Positions 2,078-16,434 of a stretch of DNA of 64,000 nt are shown in pieces. The stretch comes from Candidatus Poribacteria bacterium (GTDB lineage Bacteria; Poribacteria; WGA-4E; WGA-3G). Below the pieces are notes generated by a model that saw only the letters and a program-made list of their open reading frames with translations, was not told the origin of the DNA and did no database searches. A program made the position numbers and the translations under genes. The stretch covers positions 736,001 to 800,000 of the forward strand of contig OZ242029.1 of assembly GCA_965205015.1 (NCBI GenBank), read 5' to 3'. Numbering within the stretch: the stretch's first letter is position 1; each line of letters begins with the position of its first letter.

Positions 2078-3748
2078 CTACTGGTTCCTGGATTCCCCCG
2101 CCACTGCTCCTGCCACGAGTTGTTCTAAATCTGCCTCCCTGCCTCTGCGGGAGATCAATTTGTGGTTGGCTTCATAGGCGATCAACTTACCCTCCCTATC
2201 AATAAGCCACCGTGTCGGAATAGAGCGAACGTTATACTGTTGCGCGAGCGGACTCTGTCGTTCCAGACCGCTGTAAATTTGCCGCCAAGAGATGTCATTC
2301 TCCCTAAGGTAATTTCGCAGTTTCGTTTCATCGGTGTCAAGGCTGACCCCGATGATGTCAAATCCTTTGTCTTTATAGGTATCGTAAATCTTCTTCACCC
2401 TCAGCATTTCCCCGACGCAGAAACCGTTCCAGACTGCCCAGAAATCGAGTAAGACGACTTTTCCGCGGTATTGCTGGAGCGAAATCGGATTGCCATCATG
2501 ATCTGTTGTAGAAAAATCAGATGCCGGTTTTCCAAACTCGTCATAGGCCTCGGCGAGCCTACGGGATAGACCGTGCTTTCCAAGTTGCCTCGGCTTTTGT
2601 GCCGCAACTTTCATACCCATAGATGACGTTAGCAATTCTAAATACCGAGGTATCCGCTCACTGCGAGGTAACCGATAATCCGGATGAAACAAATTCTTGC
2701 TGGGCAGATGTTCAATCACTTCCAATTCAGGGGTTAGTGTTAGGATGTCCACAGAATCGGAGTAATGCTGTCGGAGTTTTGTTGCCAAGTCACCCGCTGC
2801 TGCGCCTTTGGCACCCGTCTGCAACTCGGGCAACTCCCTGTGTAGAACCCAGACGTTCACAAAATGCGTGTTGAGCGATTCAATAATTTTCGGTGAGGAG
2901 AGCGGACCCGCTCTCAAAATTTTGCCCGTCCCTCAGCAAGACTCATCGTCGAGGACCCCGAATAGGAGGACCGCATGGATCGGACGATTCGATGCTTTCG
3001 CGAGTTGGACCGCATCTTCAATAGGAGTCCACGCAATTCCAGCGAACTTGTAAAGCGCGTTCTGAAACTTTCTATCGGCTTCTTCCTCCGTGATAGCGGT
3101 TCCCCAATCAATCGACTCCGGTTGCGTCTCCGATAAACTGTGGAGTTCCATACGCGGAACCAACCCTATATCGTGGGTTCCAAAAGCACCCATATCTACA
3201 TTACTGTTGCGACTGGGAAGCGATAGCGTCCACTGACAAATCGTTCCACTGTTGCGATTGATGCGCAAATGTCCAGCAAATTGTGCAGGCCTCAAGTAGG
3301 CACCGATGGAGGCGTTCAGTATGAAGCGCGCATGGATTCGGAAGACAATATCAGCATATTCAGGTGATAGTGCCCGTAAGCAGGCTTTCGCGCCGTTCCC
3401 ACCATATCCGACATCCATTGTTGCGTTGGGGTGAAACTGGCGCAGAAACGGGAGAATCCGATCCGGATCCAGGTCCCAGACATCCCCTACGTTGACCGTT
3501 GACGGTGGAAGAAAAACTTGGAAATCCGATGTATTATAGTCCTTCAACGGCTGCGCAGGTCCGGGCTTGAATAACTCCAACCACTCTTCCCACGTCATGT
3601 CCACCGGTTCTTGCCACTGTGACTTAGTTCGATTAAACTTTTCTTCTGTTGCCCAATGCAAGTTATTCGATGTATTTTCGATCGGATCCCAATGCGCCTG
3701 CACTGGGATATTCGCTGAAGTTCTTAGCACGTTACGAAGGTCTATCAC
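2078..3748 (-). CDS. Selenoprotein N (SELENON)-like protein with Sec (UGA 2933-2935, residue 272), fused to a C-terminal TlpA/AhpC-TSA domain; 556 aa
   Basis: ORFs 2933..3748 and 2078..2917 are in frame and separated only by TGA plus 5 sense codons. Readthrough gives HAVLLFGVLDDESC-U-GTGKILRAGPLSSPKIIESLNTHFVNVW, matching the SELENON motif [22 protein letters not shown] as recalled. Upstream blocks FRIHA, PAQFAGH, NVDM and DIGLVPRMEL also match. Hairpin follows the UGA. GTG start with AGGAG RBS. Confidence 0.85.
2894..2935 (-). promoter_or_regulatory. putative bacterial SECIS element of the SelN-like gene
   Basis: UGA-N17-GAGAGCG-GGUC-CGCUCUC: 7-8 bp perfect stem with a G-initiated apical loop. 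The following CUCA can pair with UGAG. Confidence 0.7.
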
Positions 3749-3793
3749 TATCTTTACTCCTATTGTTAGAACGATTTATGGTAGATTTTAGAA

Positions 3794-3870
3794 TTTGTGG
3801 GCAGGCACGAGACCTGCCCCTACAATGTGATTGGTGTATTTGTGGGCAGGCACAAGACCTGCCCCTACAA
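3794..3870 (-). repeat. two tandem GTAG-type REP elements (GTAG-GGGCAGG-TCTYGTG-CCTGCCC-ACA)
   Basis: 32-bp copies at 3794-3825 and 3839-3870 with one mismatch; a related copy is at 16407-16434. Confidence 0.8.
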
Positions 3871-3909: not shown

Positions 3910-5217
3910 CTATTGATTCTCGGGTCTGTTTTTGAGGGCTTCCACGACGAGATGTTCTAAATCTTCGCCCCTTGCTTTATGCGAAATTAATGTGCCATCC
4001 CTGTCAATAAGCCACGGTGCCGGAATACCACGGATATCGTATTGTCGGGTAAGGGAATCTTCACCCCTTGCGTTATCGAAAATTTGTCGCCATTGGATGT
4101 CATTCTCTTTAATATAGTCCCGCAGTTTCGGTTCCTCATTATCAAGACTGACCCCGATGACGTCAAATCCCTGATCCTTATAGGTGTCGTAGACTCTTTT
4201 GAGATTTGGCATTTCCGCGATGCACGGACCACACCACACCGCCCAAAAATCGAGTAAGACAACCTTTCCACGATAGTCTTGAAGCGAAATTGGATTCCCA
4301 TCAAGGTCTGTCGCAGAAAAATCAGGCACCAATTTTCCCCACAATTCATATTTAGGATCAGCCTTGCGTTCATAAACTTCGGCGAGTTCAATATTGCCTA
4401 ATTTCTCATAAATATAGGCAAGCCTCGCATGGATAGGTTGTGCATCCGGAAGCTGCTGCTCAGCCGCCTTAAAAATCTCAAGCATATCATCATATAATTC
4501 CGCTTCCGCAAGTACCTCAAATACTGTGCGATACCCATCAATGTTTAGGATCATGCCTGACTTGAGACGCTCAATCAGAGCATCGGCGGCTTGTTCATCC
4601 CCGACTCGGTGGATGTAGAGTCCAAGAAGTTCTGCGTAGAGCTCGAAGAAACGCCGATCGTCCGGGTATCGCGCAAGTGTGTCTTCAAAAGCAGTAATCG
4701 CGGCTTCGGGGCTACCGTATATCTCTTCGGGTGTGTACACACCGGAGGACCAAAATATTTTGAAAGCGAAACTCAAGTTCAGACACTCAAACGCTTGATT
4801 CCTATGATGCCGACAACGGACAAGGGGTATAACATCCCCATACACGAAACGTTCCTCACTTTTCATTGCTCGATACCGCGGATGAAATTGGTAGCCGTAA
4901 CTTACGGGCATCTTTGGATCTGCATTGCTGGAAAAGATTGGCTTGCCACCCAACTCATCTGCTGGACACAGCAAAAGGTTTGCATCGGGCAAATATTTCG
5001 GATGAAGTTCTGAGAGCCATTCCGGGAAATCGCCGTGTTCTTTTTTATAGGCTTGAATCGCCTCGCCAATCGCAACCAAATTTTGCGTGCAGATTTCAAT
5101 GTTTTTCTCATGCCGTTCCATAATTAGATCCTCGCTGGGCTTTTCTGTAGGTGTGTCTGCGTTTGCAGAAGTGATTAGTAAACCTATCACCATTGCCACA
5201 GTCAAGATTGCTTTCAT
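3910..5217 (-). CDS. exported TlpA-family thiol-disulfide oxidoreductase with N-terminal pseudopilin/DUF1559-like and TPR-like regions
   Basis: Signal peptide (MKAILTVAMVIGLLITSANA); C-terminal PDFSATDLDG...VLLDFWAVWCGPC...IPAPWLIDRDG. Confidence 0.82.
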   Translation of the reverse strand: MKAILTVAMVIGLLITSANADTPTEKPSEDLIMERHEKNIEICTQNLVAIGEAIQAYKKEHGDFPEWLSELHPKYLPDANLLLCPADELGGKPIFSSNADPKMPVSYGYQFHPRYRAMKSEERFVYGDVIPLVRCRHHRNQAFECLNLSFAFKIFWSSGVYTPEEIYGSPEAAITAFEDTLARYPDDRRFFELYAELLGLYIHRVGDEQAADALIERLKSGMILNIDGYRTVFEVLAEAELYDDMLEIFKAAEQQLPDAQPIHARLAYIYEKLGNIELAEVYERKADPKYELWGKLVPDFSATDLDGNPISLQDYRGKVVLLDFWAVWCGPCIAEMPNLKRVYDTYKDQGFDVIGVSLDNEEPKLRDYIKENDIQWRQIFDNARGEDSLTRQYDIRGIPAPWLIDRDGTLISHKARGEDLEHLVVEALKNRPENQ

Positions 5218-5262: not shown

Positions 5263-7596
5263 CTATTGATTCTCGGTTTTGTCCTTGAGGGCTTCCACCA
5301 CGAGTTGTTCTAACTTCACCCCTCTGGCTTTACGTGAGATTAATGTGCCGTCCCTGGCAATGAGCCACGGTGCTGGGATGGAACGAATATGATGCCGTTG
5401 CGCAAGTGGACTTCTCCATTTTTGTCCGCTGAAGATTTGCCGCCACCGGATGTTATTCTTTTTTAGGTAGTTGCGCAGCCTCACCTCATCAGTGTCAAGA
5501 CTGACACCGATGATATCGAAACCCTGATCCTTATAGGTATTGTAAACCCTTTTCACATTCGGCATTTCGGTTATACAGGGACCACACCAGACTGCCCAGA
5601 AATCGAGTAGCACCACTTTTCCGCGATATTGTTGAAGCGAGATCGGTCTGCCATCAAGGTCAGTTTCTGAAAAATCAGGCACAATTTTTCCGACAAGTTC
5701 CGACATCGGATCCGCCTTTTTCCGATATTTCGCGGCGAGCTCGGAATTACCGAGCACTTCATGAATTCGCGCAAGTTCTTCCAGAACGCGGGAGTCTTTC
5801 GGATACCGTTTCTCAAGATTCTCAAAGACTTTAAGCGCTTCTTCATATTGATTCGCCATTTCAAGCATCCTGCTGAGCATAAAATGTGCCTGAAGGTCGT
5901 CAGGTTTTATAACCGATCTGAAACGGTTAATAAGGTGCTCGGCAGCTTTTTCGCGTCCGACTTCAATGTAGAGACGGGCAAGTGTCATATAGAAATGAAA
6001 GAACTGTTCATTATCGGCTTGTCGCTGCAGTCCTTTTTCCAACGCTGCAATGGTTTCCTCAACGGTTTCATACATCTCTTCTGGTCTATATACACCGGAT
6101 GACCAATATATCTTAAAAGCGAAACTCAAGTTTAGACACTCAAACGCTTGATTCTTATGATGCCGGCAACGGACAAGCGGTAAAACGTCCCCATACATAA
6201 GGCGTTCCTCAGTTTTTGCTACTCGATACGCAGGGTGAAATTGGTAGCCGTAACTCACAGGCATCTTCGGGTCTCTATTAGAAGCAAAAACTGTCCTGCC
6301 GTTCAGTCCATCTGCAGGACAAAGCAAGAGATTCGCATTTGGTAAGTAGTGGGGATAAAGGTCTGAGAGCCATTGCGGAAAATCACCGTGTTCCTTCCGG
6401 TAGGCTTGGAGTGCCTTGCCAATGTCGCGCAGATGCTGTTTGCAGATTTCAACGTTCTCGTCCATCTGTTCCGCCTTCGTCGTTCGGTCAGAAGGCTCCT
6501 CGCTTGATGTTGATTGGGATTTGGAGGCTGCCTGAATTTGTTGGGACAGTGCGTCCTTTGGATCAACCGCCTGTGCCAAACGCATCGCGCCCATCGGAAC
6601 AGCAAAGCAGATGAGGACGAGCAGTCCTATTCCCATGGCAACTTTTGTCACCGGACGCCGATTCAGATTTTCGGCGAGAACGGTTCGGAGTCGTCTTTCA
6701 ATCCTTGAGGAACGCGCGATTGCCACAGCCGCAAGCGAAGTTGCCTTGGTAATTTTCACATTGCGTGTAATATCAAGCAGATGTTGCGCGTAGTCGGTGG
6801 ATCGACACCCAGCATTTAGGACATGGTCATCGCAGGCTTGCTCTGCTTCTATGCGCATCCAACGCGCCAGCAACCATACAAGTGGATTGAACCAATAGAT
6901 CGCACACGTTACCTGTGCAACCATCTGCATCGTCCAATCCCACCGTTTGATATGTGCCAATTCGTGTAGGAGCACAGTACGGAGCCGCTCGGTTTGCCAA
7001 TGATTTGCATCAACTGGTAGCAAAATCACAGGACGTAAGAAACCCCACACCATCGGGACTGTAATCCTATCGCTGAGCCGGATATTGACGCGTCGATTTG
7101 AATTGGATTGTAACTGTTCGACAGCACGGCTAAAATTGCGACTCCGAGCAGAGATATGCCAAATGGCACCGATGCCGACAATCAAACGGATAAACAGAAA
7201 CAGTCCAGCACCTGTCCAGACGATTGCTATCCAGTCTGTCCAATGTCGTGTCGTAAAGGGGGCACTCTGATCGGGCACAAGGTCGGGTTGCGGCGGTGTC
7301 GATGCGATTGGTATGGACGACACCGACTTTGTTGACAATTGGATCGGTGCACTTGAAACGGGTACTTCAGGTAGGATACCGAGTTCCCACTTCGGAAGCA
7401 CAAGAGAAAGCAGCGGGATAGTGAGGCATCCGACGATTGCCATACTCCAGGCGAAACCGCGCACCGCCGCCGACTTGCGACGGAGGCAGAACGCGAATAC
7501 ACCCGCAACGGCGAAAATCACGAAACTTTTCATCGTGGTGTCAACGAGAAATTTCAGCAATGGGTCTGCGTAGAGCGTCTCAATAAATCGCATCAT
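5263..7596 (-). CDS. BlaR1/MecR1-type M56 metallopeptidase fused to TPR and TlpA (WCGPC) domains
   Basis: N-terminal TM helices, PMVWGFLRPVILLP, HELAHIKRWD (HExxH), WFNPLVW and EQACDDHVL. The C-terminal half is paralogous to 3910..5217. Overlaps the blaI-like stop. Confidence 0.9.
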   Translation of the reverse strand: MMRFIETLYADPLLKFLVDTTMKSFVIFAVAGVFAFCLRRKSAAVRGFAWSMAIVGCLTIPLLSLVLPKWELGILPEVPVSSAPIQLSTKSVSSIPIASTPPQPDLVPDQSAPFTTRHWTDWIAIVWTGAGLFLFIRLIVGIGAIWHISARSRNFSRAVEQLQSNSNRRVNIRLSDRITVPMVWGFLRPVILLPVDANHWQTERLRTVLLHELAHIKRWDWTMQMVAQVTCAIYWFNPLVWLLARWMRIEAEQACDDHVLNAGCRSTDYAQHLLDITRNVKITKATSLAAVAIARSSRIERRLRTVLAENLNRRPVTKVAMGIGLLVLICFAVPMGAMRLAQAVDPKDALSQQIQAASKSQSTSSEEPSDRTTKAEQMDENVEICKQHLRDIGKALQAYRKEHGDFPQWLSDLYPHYLPNANLLLCPADGLNGRTVFASNRDPKMPVSYGYQFHPAYRVAKTEERLMYGDVLPLVRCRHHKNQAFECLNLSFAFKIYWSSGVYRPEEMYETVEETIAALEKGLQRQADNEQFFHFYMTLARLYIEVGREKAAEHLINRFRSVIKPDDLQAHFMLSRMLEMANQYEEALKVFENLEKRYPKDSRVLEELARIHEVLGNSELAAKYRKKADPMSELVGKIVPDFSETDLDGRPISLQQYRGKVVLLDFWAVWCGPCITEMPNVKRVYNTYKDQGFDIIGVSLDTDEVRLRNYLKKNNIRWRQIFSGQKWRSPLAQRHHIRSIPAPWLIARDGTLISRKARGVKLEQLVVEALKDKTENQ

Positions 7597-7982
7597 GATG
7601 AAGTGTCTCCCTTTTTCGCTTGCTCAATGAGTTGGCTTAAACGGTCAAGTTCCTCATCCGAGAGATCCACCTCGGAGACCAGTGCAATGACCGTTTTCTC
7701 AATAGACTTATCAAAAAACGTCTGAAAAATCTGTTTGAGTGCGGAACGTCCCGCCAGATGCCGTGGTTGCGTCGGGCGGTAGATGTAGCGTCTGCCATCT
7801 TTTTCATGGGTGAGATACCCCTTCTCCTCCAAGATTCCCAACAGTGCCCGAACTGTAGAGTAAGTTGGCGGATCCGGGAGGTCCTCAAGGACATCGACAA
7901 CAGAAGCGCAACCGCGCTGATAGACGATATCCATGATTTGTCGTTCCCTCCGACTCAGTTTGAGGGTACCGTAGTCTTCCAC
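7593..7982 (-). CDS. BlaI/MecI/CopY family transcriptional repressor
   Basis: LSRRERQIMDIVY...TYSTVRALLGILEEKGYL...DGRRYIY...LSDEELDRL; directly upstream of the M56 gene. Confidence 0.93.
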   Translation of the reverse strand: MEDYGTLKLSRRERQIMDIVYQRGCASVVDVLEDLPDPPTYSTVRALLGILEEKGYLTHEKDGRRYIYRPTQPRHLAGRSALKQIFQTFFDKSIEKTVIALVSEVDLSDEELDRLSQLIEQAKKGDTSS

Positions 7983-8012: not shown

Positions 8013-9401
8013 TCAGATTTCAATACGCACAAACGCGAGATACGCACCCGCCAACACAACGACAACAAACAATGTTAACAGCAGTAACTCTGTTGTAACG
8101 GTATTGAAATCCTTACCGATGTTGAGTGTGTCTTCAAATTTGGGAACCGCTTCTGGGCTGACAGGCTTTTTGGACATCCCCTCGCGAACGCCCATGATAT
8201 GGGGGCTCTCCGGATCGCCTCTCTCCATATCAACGACGAATTCTCGGTATTCACGGGCGTAACGCTGAACATTCTCAGTAAATTGCTGGTGCCGATCCAG
8301 ACCTGTTCCAGCGAACGCCTCAAGCAGATGCTGGAGGAGTGCCGCGGGTGAGACGCTGGTTATGGCACGCGCACGTTGAACTTGGGTAATCTTAAAGGTT
8401 AAGTACTCCCCAGCCAAGCGTTCGCCGCTTACTGCTATTTTGGTGTGCCACTCACCTCTTATCCTTAGCATTTTTTCGTCATCTGACTGATACCAAGCGT
8501 GTCGCCAAGTTTTCTTAAGTCTCCTGTAACTTTGGCCGTATCGGTCTGTATATTCATGAGATGCCATAGATGATGAAAAGCCGCTCGCAAGTGCGGCGAG
8601 TGTGCTCGGCATAAAAGCGACAAAAGTGACCCACGTCAACAGAAGTATCACAAGACTCACGGCACTCCGTTGCACACGCGCTGAGACTAACAGCCCTAAC
8701 GCCAGAAACAGACACGTGTACAAAAGTGCGATAAAGAGAATGATGCCTAAGCGTCCCCACGCTTCAGTATTCAGGTGAACCTCACTTGCGGAGGAAATCA
8801 TTAGGAGGTTCACTAACATAGCCAGCAGAAAAGGAATAGTCGTACTGATCAACGCCCCCAGAAACTTACCGATCAGCACAGTATGTCGTGGGATAGCATT
8901 TGCCAACATCAATCGGAGCGTGCCGTGCTCGCGTTCGCTGGAGATAGCATCAAACGTAAATAAGAGCGCAATGAGACTCAAGATATAACCGATGATAAAG
9001 GTCCAATCGATTTGGGAAACGTCGGGTCCAACATTTTTCATATTTATGTTGGCATCTGGATAGCTCAGTTTCCAGAAAATGTCGCTACCATAAGGGGTGT
9101 CAACCCTATCGGGTAAAAGGGTCTCTCCACCCGCTGCGCAGAAATGGAGCGGCGACGGTTTTTTGTAAAGCACTCCGGGTCCCTCGTGTGCCAATGTATA
9201 GAGACTGTCGTCGGCGCGAGACGTTAATTGGTTCATGGATTCAGTGACAGCGTCGTGATACTTCTGGACCCGTTTCGGATGCTCTCGGATATGTCTAACG
9301 GCGTTGGTTACCATCAGTGCCAGCAGCAACACGGTCGTCAACGCAAATCGGAGGCTATTCAAATTATTATAGAGTTCACGTTTCGTAATATGCCACATCA
9401 T
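8013..9401 (-). CDS. ABC-2-type transporter permease subunit (type B, copy 2)
   Basis: WHITKRELY start, FDAISSEREHGTLRLML motif, ~6 TM helices with two large extracytoplasmic loops. Confidence 0.8.
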   Translation of the reverse strand: MMWHITKRELYNNLNSLRFALTTVLLLALMVTNAVRHIREHPKRVQKYHDAVTESMNQLTSRADDSLYTLAHEGPGVLYKKPSPLHFCAAGGETLLPDRVDTPYGSDIFWKLSYPDANINMKNVGPDVSQIDWTFIIGYILSLIALLFTFDAISSEREHGTLRLMLANAIPRHTVLIGKFLGALISTTIPFLLAMLVNLLMISSASEVHLNTEAWGRLGIILFIALLYTCLFLALGLLVSARVQRSAVSLVILLLTWVTFVAFMPSTLAALASGFSSSMASHEYTDRYGQSYRRLKKTWRHAWYQSDDEKMLRIRGEWHTKIAVSGERLAGEYLTFKITQVQRARAITSVSPAALLQHLLEAFAGTGLDRHQQFTENVQRYAREYREFVVDMERGDPESPHIMGVREGMSKKPVSPEAVPKFEDTLNIGKDFNTVTTELLLLTLFVVVVLAGAYLAFVRIEI

Positions 9402-9403
9402 AT

Positions 9404-10915
9404 CTACACTTCACTTTTGATAAAAACCAGAAAGATCACTATAAAGAGAAGGACATTCATCATAAGCAGCAGGAACAAGTCTGGCACTGTTCGTTTTGCA
9501 TTGATGCTGATATCGCTTCTCTGAAATGAGAACTGCGGGAGCGTGTCCCAATCGACGGCACCTTGATCGGAAGAAAACCACTGTCGGGACGCAAATATCT
9601 TTTCATCATAAAAGTAATTGACGATCGCTTGTCGGTAGCGTTGCGCCGCTGTGAAAAAATCCTGGGTGCCATTGAGGTCGGTGCCTGCCCACGCTTCGGT
9701 TGCGGCATCATACAAACCCGCCGGTGAGAACTTCAACAACATTCGTCCTCTGTTTGCCGGTTGGACGTAGATCTTCTCGAATGCTGGCTTTCGGATAAAC
9801 GATGTTCGCTCTGCGGTGTTGACAGTCAACATTCCGAGGTAGTGGTGATAATTCTGGGCGTGTGGCACGTAAGGTTCCGATTTCTCGTCAATCGTTTCAA
9901 GGTCGCCCGCAGCATGGTGGATGTAGTAATATAATAATCTTGATGGCTGGTCTCTTATTATCCCATAAAAATCAAATCCCAAATCTTCTCCTGGGAGAGC
10001 ATCGTTGAGGAGAAACTGCTTCCGCTTTCTCTCAAGTTCCTCCCACATCTGTTTAACCTGATGGTAAGCGGCGGCTTCCGTATCCGTTTGTGGGGCAGTA
10101 TCAACTGCAGTGAGAATCATATTCGGGTAGACGAGTACTAAGAACCCCCAAACGAACATCGAGAGGATAAGCGCAGTACTGGTTCGGCGTGTGATTGCAG
10201 AAATGAGCATGCCAGTGAGGTAGAACAGCGATAGATAGACGACGGACGTAAGAACAATCCCACCGATACGCAGAAAATCATCGGTATTCAGGGAGATCAT
10301 AGCGGATGTCGTCAGCAAAATGAGCATCAGGAGCAGACTTATCAACAACGGCACGAGCAAACAGACCATCGCACCGATATATTTGGCGAACAGGATGGAC
10401 CCACGTCCCACGGGATGGGATAGCACTAAGCGGAGGGTGCCGTGTTCGTATTCTCCAGCGATAGCATCGTAGGCGAAAATAAGTGCCAGTAGGCTAAGAA
10501 CCCCTTGAAAAATAAGGACAATATCAATTGAAGTGAGGATGTTGAAAAATGGATTGTTCGCCTCGTACTTGTCGGCATCCCAAATTGTCGGCGTAAAAGT
10601 ATGGGAAATCGCAATTTTGTTCCCCAGTCGCTTATCTAAACCTGTGTTGAAAATGCTCAACGGGTTCGGCGGACGGTCAACGATCATCTTTCCCCACACG
10701 CCTAACATTCCATCTGAATAGGTTTTGTTGATCTCTCGAAGTTCCTGCCGGTGGGTTTTGACGGCGGTATTATAATCCGCCAACCGCAGTTCATAGTCTT
10801 TGATGAGCACAACGGTATTCGCGACCACGAGCAGCAGCATAATCGCAACAGCTGCCGCAAATCGGAACGTCATGAGATTGTCGAGGAGTTCCCGCCGAAT
10901 GAGTGTTAGAAACAT
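9404..10915 (-). CDS. ABC-2-type transporter permease subunit (type A, copy 2)
   Basis: LIRRELLDNL start, YDAIAGEYEHGTLRLVL motif, multiple TM helices. Confidence 0.8.
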   Translation of the reverse strand: MFLTLIRRELLDNLMTFRFAAAVAIMLLLVVANTVVLIKDYELRLADYNTAVKTHRQELREINKTYSDGMLGVWGKMIVDRPPNPLSIFNTGLDKRLGNKIAISHTFTPTIWDADKYEANNPFFNILTSIDIVLIFQGVLSLLALIFAYDAIAGEYEHGTLRLVLSHPVGRGSILFAKYIGAMVCLLVPLLISLLLMLILLTTSAMISLNTDDFLRIGGIVLTSVVYLSLFYLTGMLISAITRRTSTALILSMFVWGFLVLVYPNMILTAVDTAPQTDTEAAAYHQVKQMWEELERKRKQFLLNDALPGEDLGFDFYGIIRDQPSRLLYYYIHHAAGDLETIDEKSEPYVPHAQNYHHYLGMLTVNTAERTSFIRKPAFEKIYVQPANRGRMLLKFSPAGLYDAATEAWAGTDLNGTQDFFTAAQRYRQAIVNYFYDEKIFASRQWFSSDQGAVDWDTLPQFSFQRSDISINAKRTVPDLFLLLMMNVLLFIVIFLVFIKSEV

Positions 10916-16406: not shown

Positions 16407-16434
16407 GTAGGGGTAGGTCTTGTGCCTACCCACA
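16407..16434 (+). repeat. GTAG-type REP element
   Basis: GTAG-GGGTAGG-TCTTGTG-CCTACCC-ACA; compensatory C-G to T-A pair change relative to the copies at 3794-3870. Confidence 0.75.

Follow-up and report, generated by a model that had tools for sequence, protein, structure and literature searches.

The stretch analysed here, called the window throughout, comprises 64,000 nucleotides of a poribacterial genome (Candidatus Poribacteria bacterium, GCA_965205015.1, contig OZ242029.1, positions 736,001 to 800,000), and its subject is a minus-strand gene homologous to animal selenoprotein N (SELENON or SEPN1; SelN for the family). The gene forms a single frame of 556 codons that is interrupted only once, by a TGA at residue 272 in the context LFGVLDDESC-TGA-GTGKILRAGPLSSPKIIESLNTHFVNVW (Table 1); the plus-strand reading of 2078-3748 is full of stops and was dropped. 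Under translation table 11 the frame is split into two open reading frames (ORFs), 2933..3748 (271 aa) and 2078..2917 (279 aa), both on the minus strand, and public gene calls likewise split relatives into halves of ~271 and ~350 aa, with labels such as 'TlpA family protein disulfide reductase'. An earlier note, made from the sequence alone and naming no strand, had described one frame parted by a single TGA and had predicted that standard gene callers would break it; translation of the minus strand reproduces the quoted context exactly, and the table 11 ORFs and public gene calls show the predicted halves. The start cannot lie further 5' because in-frame stops directly precede the GTG codon. 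Full-length relatives with 84-86% identity occur in Poribacteria metagenome-assembled genomes, and no further copy of the gene was found within the window. The codon is covered and bridged by contigs from the sequencing runs of two studies, whose agreement at the TGA is only partly shown (40 of 358 differences listed). Promoter and terminator scans gave hits at chance level only. A 9-bp GC-rich hairpin without a T-run lies ~12 nt past the TAG stop, at 2035-2066 on the minus strand, and may serve as a terminator or stabiliser.

Residues 1-395 of the read-through product gave no Pfam, NCBIfam or PDB sequence match. A profile (A2) built from the window protein, two poribacterial paralogues and distant relatives was scored against 1.84 billion representative proteins and matched 657 clusters (50% identity) at E <= 1e-3, 218 of them at <= 1e-30. 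The UniRef entry 'Selenoprotein N' of Cercocebus atys was matched at E 7.5e-42 (profile 56-359 against residues 157-505), as were proteins of wombat (1.6e-54), Nematostella (1.0e-51) and the jellyfish Sanderia; few A2 matches extend beyond the column of residue 272, hereafter the selenocysteine (Sec) column, and these four animal proteins are among them. BLASTP of the window protein alone reached 1e-32 with the C. atys entry (27% identity over 344 columns, query 65-348, spanning the Sec column) and 1e-34 with the Nematostella protein. Because profile and BLASTP matches flank the TGA on both sides, the SELENON homology, which the earlier note had proposed, is now shown, and the conserved blocks that it had listed are seen in the same order in the alignments with the primate and Nematostella proteins. 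S270, C271 and column 272 are invariant across the 41 rows of an alignment (A4) of bacterial and eukaryotic sequences, nine eukaryote-like mRNAs included, and excerpts of PMC12839072 give SCUG as the SelN motif. Metagenomes from soil and elsewhere contain the family, as does one Gemmataceae record, and a search of the phylum found it in 130 of 175 genomes. It is thus a large and widespread bacterial family that is routinely mis-annotated, and hundreds of database entries are halves because gene callers systematically split these genes.

Among loci from named Poribacteria genomes, 45 of 47 carry TGA at the Sec column; of the other two, one begins past the column (L043) and one gave no motif (L044). 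The same codon was found in all 68 metagenome loci in which the motif search located the column (12 of the 80 loci lacked the motif), at identities down to ~25%, and in the phylum search exactly one TGA was present in each of the 150 places listed, 642 further matches lying beyond them. By manual count, ~114 of the 150 listed A2 representatives stop exactly at the Cys that precedes the column. The variants at column 272 are Cys in P0003 and Gly in P0002; the earlier note had asked whether relatives conserve the UGA or replace it by Cys. If the TGA were a true stop, the locus would hold two separate genes or a decayed one, encoding a protein of 271 residues and a TlpA-family protein with a start of its own, which is how table 11 and the public annotations present the halves. 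We consider this very improbable: the halves stay in frame with one TGA at one column in the 45 genome loci, the 68 metagenome loci and the 150 listed places, homology that continues through the column is seen with both SELENON and P0003, the Cys form, a single thioredoxin-fold domain takes in the residues before the TGA and the first ~100 after it, and the TGA is followed by an RNA hairpin under selection.

This hairpin, with perfectly matching arms GAGAGCG and CGCTCTC beginning 17 nt after the TGA, was found as the earlier note had described it. We aligned 85 distinct bacterial 60-mers following the TGA with that of the window, without internal gaps and with the stem at columns 21-27 and 32-38. 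In 99.2% of 602 cells (86 distinct sequences) the stem bases pair, compared with 35-71% in slid-partner controls, and none of 500 shuffles equalled the observed values. Both sides change together at four of the seven pairs, from G:C to A:U in 23 sequences and from A:U to C:G in two, with frequent G-U variants besides, and RNAalifold recovers the same 7 pairs unaided. The loop reads GGTC in 82 of the 85 distinct sequences; in the E. coli K-12 fdhF record the TGA is followed by 18 nt and then by GCA-GGTC-TGC. Covariation thus supports the hairpin as a bacterial selenocysteine insertion sequence (SECIS) under selection.

An AlphaFold2 model built with 41 alignment rows is confident for residues 1-378. 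In it, residues 13-204 form a beta-rich domain and residues 221-377 a thioredoxin fold, in which U272 takes the usual place of the CxxC motif. Modelled alone, the N-terminal domain reached a predicted local distance difference score (pLDDT) of 94.3 and a predicted template modelling score (pTM) of 0.90, while Foldseek found no neighbour for it in the PDB (best E 0.07, template modelling score (TM) 0.18); the predicted structure may therefore represent a fold that still awaits its first solved example. For the Sec-bearing domain, the fold search of the PDB gave 7tkv_B (Thioredox_DsbH) as best match, the remaining matches falling on the TlpA-like part. Neither sequence nor fold searches found a SelN-family structure in the PDB, and the idea that a crystal structure of a poribacterial SelN accompanied the 2020 PNAS paper on SEPN1 found no support in the PDB searches or in the text of that paper, which mentions neither bacteria nor orthologues or homologues.

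Behind the SelN module lies the domain that the earlier note had assigned to TlpA. Residues 404-527 match ResA in the PDB (4nmu, E 2.4e-17) and exceed the Pfam cut-offs for Redoxin (69.6 bits, cut-off 26.6) and AhpC-TSA (69.9 bits, cut-off 26), the NCBIfam models for ResA and TlpA staying below their curated cut-offs. The fusion therefore stands as far as the domain is concerned, and it does not extend to an intact CxxC motif: the fusion loci read W-[N/H/S]-x-F-C at this site (WNGFC in the window, with the first Cys lost), and only L015 keeps CGFC. Intact WCGPC motifs are found in the two neighbouring redoxin genes.

Poribacterial members occur as a stand-alone paralogue of 376-398 residues and as fusions of 545-751 residues, some of which include a TPR-like linker. 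Since most other bacterial members end 95-117 residues past Sec, the TlpA fusion is a poribacterial addition. Two further architectures were noted. Four sequences (L059, L060, L069, L106) continue for 245-255 residues after Sec into an extra C-terminal region, and six others (P0003-P0005, P0267, L062, L110; 576-690 residues) are fused behind an extracytoplasmic function (ECF) sigma-70 domain and a membrane segment, P0003 being the Cys form; the latter arrangement suggests that the SelN module acts as the outward-facing sensor of a sigma/anti-sigma-like protein. The family is also strongly expanded in Poribacteria, a single genome having as many as 15 matches, in part arranged in tandem (for example G164:C1 485498-488255, G175:C1 912029-921006 and G119:C10 11053-13389) and each listed place with one TGA, and these expanded genomes may hold many SelN-like selenoproteins.

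A hydropathy scan found a hydrophobic N-terminus in none of 46 poribacterial ORFs, and the window protein has neither anchor nor signal. The same scan found an N-terminal anchor in 24 of 39 N-complete non-poribacterial bacterial ORFs, some of the other 15 being poribacteria-like or start-truncated, and in 10 of 10 eukaryote-like ORFs.

The machinery for Sec insertion was surveyed in complete relatives, in which selA, selB, selD and tRNA-Sec scored over the family cut-offs in all five complete poribacterial genomes that carry the gene. In the same genomes (G001-G005) the tRNA-Sec gene lies within ~200 nt of selB, and selD itself has one in-frame TGA and would encode a Sec-containing SelD (e.g. 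L052, L053; L054, L055).

SELENON homology, the conserved TGA, the covarying hairpin and the Cys homologue P0003 all support the 556-aa bacterial SelN-like selenoprotein with a vicinal Cys-Sec pair that the earlier note had proposed. We put at roughly 88% the probability that the locus is a real selenoprotein gene of a sponge-symbiont poribacterium, a bacterial member of the SelN family that would work as follows. From the sequence evidence we infer that UGA 272 is recoded as Sec in vivo: a ribosome arriving at this codon would find SelB, charged with Sec-tRNA(Sec), tethered by the downstream hairpin, would insert Sec and would translate on to the TAG codon to yield one protein of 556 residues. 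The beta-rich N-terminal domain would pack on the thioredoxin-fold domain, where Cys271 and Sec272 are predicted to occupy the place of the thioredoxin CxxC. This pair would alternate between the reduced selenol/thiol state and a selenenylsulfide, and would reduce, or exchange with, oxidised cysteines of client proteins, a chemistry reported for animal SELENON. Because only the second Cys of the CxxC is kept (NGFC), the TlpA-like domain would be unable to run a dithiol cycle alone; we take it to be a putative docking module, or a single-thiol relay or resolving partner of the Cys-Sec centre. The protein would probably act in the cytoplasm, because it has no signal peptide or membrane anchor, and could play a sensor-like or redox-effector role within a thiol-stress regulon.

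Several observations weigh against this reading. The five complete relatives stand as a proxy for the window's own genome, and scans of the window for tRNA genes and Rfam families gave no match. A cytoplasmic location, as read from the hydropathy scan, would be a departure for the family. The TlpA-like domain is modelled with low confidence because few alignment rows cover it, and its contact with the Cys-Sec centre is putative. As for the hairpin, folding the window sequence singly gave a z-score of -0.28, no better than shuffles, and a longer competing stem exists. It is short, its distance from UGA to loop is 24 nt compared with 18 nt in fdhF, and it has no bulged U, a feature important in the fdhF SECIS. 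Finally, part of the hairpin signal is protein constraint, because the hairpin overlaps the conserved peptide LRAGPLS.

This last point could be taken further, to the proposal that the hairpin is a mere by-product of LRAGPLS rather than a SECIS, any read-through taking another route. The stem does lie entirely inside conserved codons, and the single-sequence fold and the absence of an Rfam match would fit. Codon usage argues otherwise: within the hairpin, synonymous codons are fixed in stem and loop (Gly+9 GGT in 82 of 83, Pro+10 CCG in 61 of 61, Leu+11 CTC in 83 of 84), while the flanks show 2 to 3.6 effective codons for the same amino acids and the wobble base immediately beyond the stem (column 39) varies freely, so that the signal is not merely protein constraint. 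The G:C to A:U, A:U to C:G and G-U variants preserve pairing even where the encoded residue differs (P to L, S to A), L068 retains 6 of 7 pairs with a different sequence, and the GGUC loop is that of the fdhF SECIS. We therefore regard a by-product as highly unlikely and keep to the reading of the hairpin as a SECIS.

The earlier note had also raised the possibility of gene exchange between a sponge symbiont and animals. Such a transfer, whether the gene was recently acquired from a sponge host or the animal gene came from Poribacteria, is suggested by the lifestyle of these bacteria, which live in sponges according to parts of PMC3909097, by excerpts of PMC3473315 that report SelN in the sponge Amphimedon, and by a sequencing run labelled as sponge metagenome that contains the gene; the organism is indeed a poribacterium. 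We examined the relationship in a quick, unrooted IQ-TREE phylogeny of 45 rows and 392 columns, with 13 eukaryotic rows; four come from named animals and nine are metagenome mRNAs, among which L132 has a 3'-untranslated region (UTR) match to SECIS_1. All 13 eukaryotic rows fall on one side of a long branch with support 100, whereas the Poribacteria lie far from them, inside a starred bacterial group together with non-poribacterial sequences. Forcing Poribacteria and eukaryotes together cost 36.4 log-likelihood units in this quick tree (approximately unbiased (AU) test, p 0.011). A recent sponge-symbiont transfer is therefore rejected, since the Poribacteria are not close to the animals; with the family also present in soil, in other metagenomes and in a Gemmataceae record, we hold it to be an even remoter prospect than a true stop or a by-product hairpin. 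The weakest alternative, a changed genetic code in which TGA encodes a standard amino acid and not Sec, would leave the frame open but has next to nothing to recommend it, as there is a single TGA, always at the redox column beside a Cys, the neighbouring genes are well formed under table 11, and the complete relatives have the full Sec machinery with a dedicated tRNA-Sec.

Setting recent transfer aside, the breadth of the family in bacteria, compared with the narrow published range of eukaryotic SelN (animals and a few algae), favours a bacterial origin of SelN, which is unproven. The hairpins bear on this question too. In animals, a coding-region stem-loop near the UGA of SelN, the selenocysteine redefinition element (SRE), is required for full recoding according to excerpts of PMC6844570, and a passage of PMC12936836 likens this element to the SECIS of bacteria. 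In 11 eukaryote-like mRNAs we found a 12-bp stem (columns 10-21 / 37-48) that starts 6 nt after the UGA and shows compensatory changes at four pairs; both this SRE-type stem and the bacterial stem are centred at about column 29, the bacterial arms lying in the SRE loop. Descent of the SRE is plausible because homologous genes carry co-centred hairpins, although convergence would be compatible with these hairpins as well. A tentative scenario, against which we would sooner bet than for it, is that SelN is at root a bacterial family, large, spread over several phyla, mostly extracytoplasmic and nearly always with Sec, that eukaryotes acquired once, and that the SRE is the positional descendant of the bacterial SECIS; under it, the transferred hairpin would have been retained and broadened, since a stem-loop behind the UGA still aids recoding under a 3'-UTR SECIS.

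Upstream of the gene, on the same strand, lies a row of genes headed by a BlaI-type repressor (Table 1). The exported TPR-redoxin protein was matched in 35 of 35 fusion loci, a few of these matches falling on the fusion's own TlpA domain or downstream, and BlaI lies upstream on the same strand in 21 of the 35, several others being cut by the flank. This row is kept in most fusion loci; the stand-alone paralogue is located elsewhere. A thiol-stress regulon is suggested because the gene row is conserved behind BlaI, the BlaR1-redoxin sensor and the exported redoxin.

Table 1. Features of the SelN-like gene and its neighbours in the window.
Feature	Coordinates	Strand	Remarks
Whole read-through gene	2078..3748	-	GTG start 3748..3746, TAG stop 2080..2078; SelN-like domains and TlpA-like domain
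GGAG ribosome-binding motif	3757..3760	-	8 nt 5' of the GTG start
N-terminal beta-rich domain, residues ~1-215	3104..3748	-	most conserved blocks of the family; confident model
Thioredoxin-fold domain, residues ~221-378	2615..3088	-	S270-C271-U272-G273, with strand 257-262 before U272 and helix 273-280 after it
UGA codon predicted to encode selenocysteine, residue 272	2933..2935	-	column conserved; Cys there in P0003
SECIS-like hairpin	2898..2915	-	7-bp stem, GGUC loop; starts 17 nt after the UGA
Hairpin 5' arm GAGAGCG	2915..2909	-	read directly
Hairpin loop GGTC	2908..2905	-	read directly
Hairpin 3' arm CGCTCTC	2904..2898	-	read directly
TlpA/ResA/redoxin-like domain, residues 404-527	2168..2539	-	Pfam and PDB matches
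Degenerate motif N441-G-F-C444 in place of CxxC	2417..2428	-	W-[N/H/S]-x-F-C in the fusion loci
TPR + redoxin protein, exported (signal-like N-terminus, WCGPC)	3910..5217	-	match in 35/35 fusion loci
BlaR1-type M56 membrane sensor/protease + TPR + redoxin (WCGPC), four hydrophobic segments	5263..7596	-	part of the conserved row
BlaI/Penicillinase_R-type repressor, head of the same-strand row	7593..7982	-	upstream in 21/35 fusion loci

Other features of this neighbourhood deserve mention in their own right. In the BlaR1/M56 sensor, encoded together with BlaI at 5263-7982, the outward part consists of TPR and a WCGPC redoxin instead of a penicillin-binding domain, and the pair, kept beside the SelN fusion in many Poribacteria, may represent a BlaR1/BlaI switch adapted to sensing thiol redox state. 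Two ABC-2-type transporter permease genes with DUF3526 (8013-10915, minus strand) come directly upstream of the BlaI-like gene; one of them was tested and is conserved there in several Poribacteria loci. A 27-nt palindrome occurs three times with at most 2 mismatches (3797-3823 and 3842-3868 on the minus strand, 16407-16433 on the plus strand; 0 expected by chance), two of the copies forming a tandem in the gap that separates the SelN-like gene from the redoxin gene upstream, and looks like an intergenic repeat of the repetitive extragenic palindromic (REP) type.

We found no published description of a bacterial SelN in a literature search that had supplements outside its scope, and an earlier report is possible. 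There was no statement on SelN in bacteria in BSepDB 2026, the 2026 prokaryotic selenoproteome review, the GOS 2008 survey, the ISME J 2016 survey, the 2020 paper on the evolution of ER calcium, the Asgard selenoproteome paper, the 2026 SelN review or deep-Sep 2025. The name 'selenoprotein N' does stand in one automatic JGI/IMG label, given to a truncated relative from a metagenome, so that the description of the homologue as 'hidden' in the earlier note was slightly overstated. A selenoprotein regarded as eukaryotic, in animals and a few algae, is extended to bacteria by these results. SELENON is a human disease gene (SEPN1-related myopathies) whose chemistry is still mostly inferred, and human disease mutations also lie in the animal SEPN1 SRE, for which the bacterial hairpin offers a first concrete evolutionary handle, its likeness to the bacterial SECIS having so far only been remarked on. 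The bacterial family supplies soluble, anchor-free proteins for structural work and enzymology, from several distinct places per poribacterial genome, and its stand-alone, TlpA-fused and ECF-sigma-fused forms amount to natural experiments on the Cys-Sec centre. The SelN N-domain, moreover, has a confidently predicted fold without a relative in the PDB.

The closest known system is animal SELENON itself, which shares with the window protein homology over ~300-345 residues on either side of Sec and the same S-C-U-G centre in the same column. Both the animal protein and the bacterial family nearly always have Sec and seldom Cys, and in both genes a hairpin directly follows the UGA, centred on the same codon. 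The window protein is only 27% identical to animal SELENON and has an extra TlpA-like domain. It lacks the type II membrane anchor and the EF-hand that precede the conserved region of SELENON, an EF-hand being absent from its Pfam matches, and judging by its N-terminus it is probably cytoplasmic, whereas SELENON resides in the lumen of the endoplasmic reticulum (ER), where excerpts of PMC7474598 describe calcium sensing and redox action on SERCA2. In the bacterial gene the in-frame SECIS takes the place of the 3'-UTR SECIS and the SRE, and no eukaryotic 3'-UTR SECIS was matched by Rfam in the window. The SEPN1 SRE is likewise a conserved coding stem-loop just after the UGA of a homologous gene; it differs in its 12-bp outer stem and in having a 3'-UTR SECIS as partner. 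The E. coli fdhF SECIS is also a stem-loop shortly after the UGA with a GGUC apical loop, and its ten bases GCA-GGUC-UGC are identical in the 'PSGTD' class of the family, the window differing only at the closing pair, although the stem of the family is a plain 7-bp helix in which no conserved lower stem was seen. Among structures, Thioredox_DsbH and DUF255-type domains (7tkv, 3ira) come closest to the Sec domain, with weak likeness (TM 0.17-0.19 over the whole model, 14-17% identity), and have neither Sec nor the SelN N-domain. TlpA, ResA and CcmG oxidoreductases resemble residues 404-527 in sequence and fold, whereas the window protein has NGFC in place of CxxC, carries no anchor or signal and places this domain behind a SelN module. 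The gene is thus a bacterial, SECIS-dependent, TlpA-fused variant of the SelN family.

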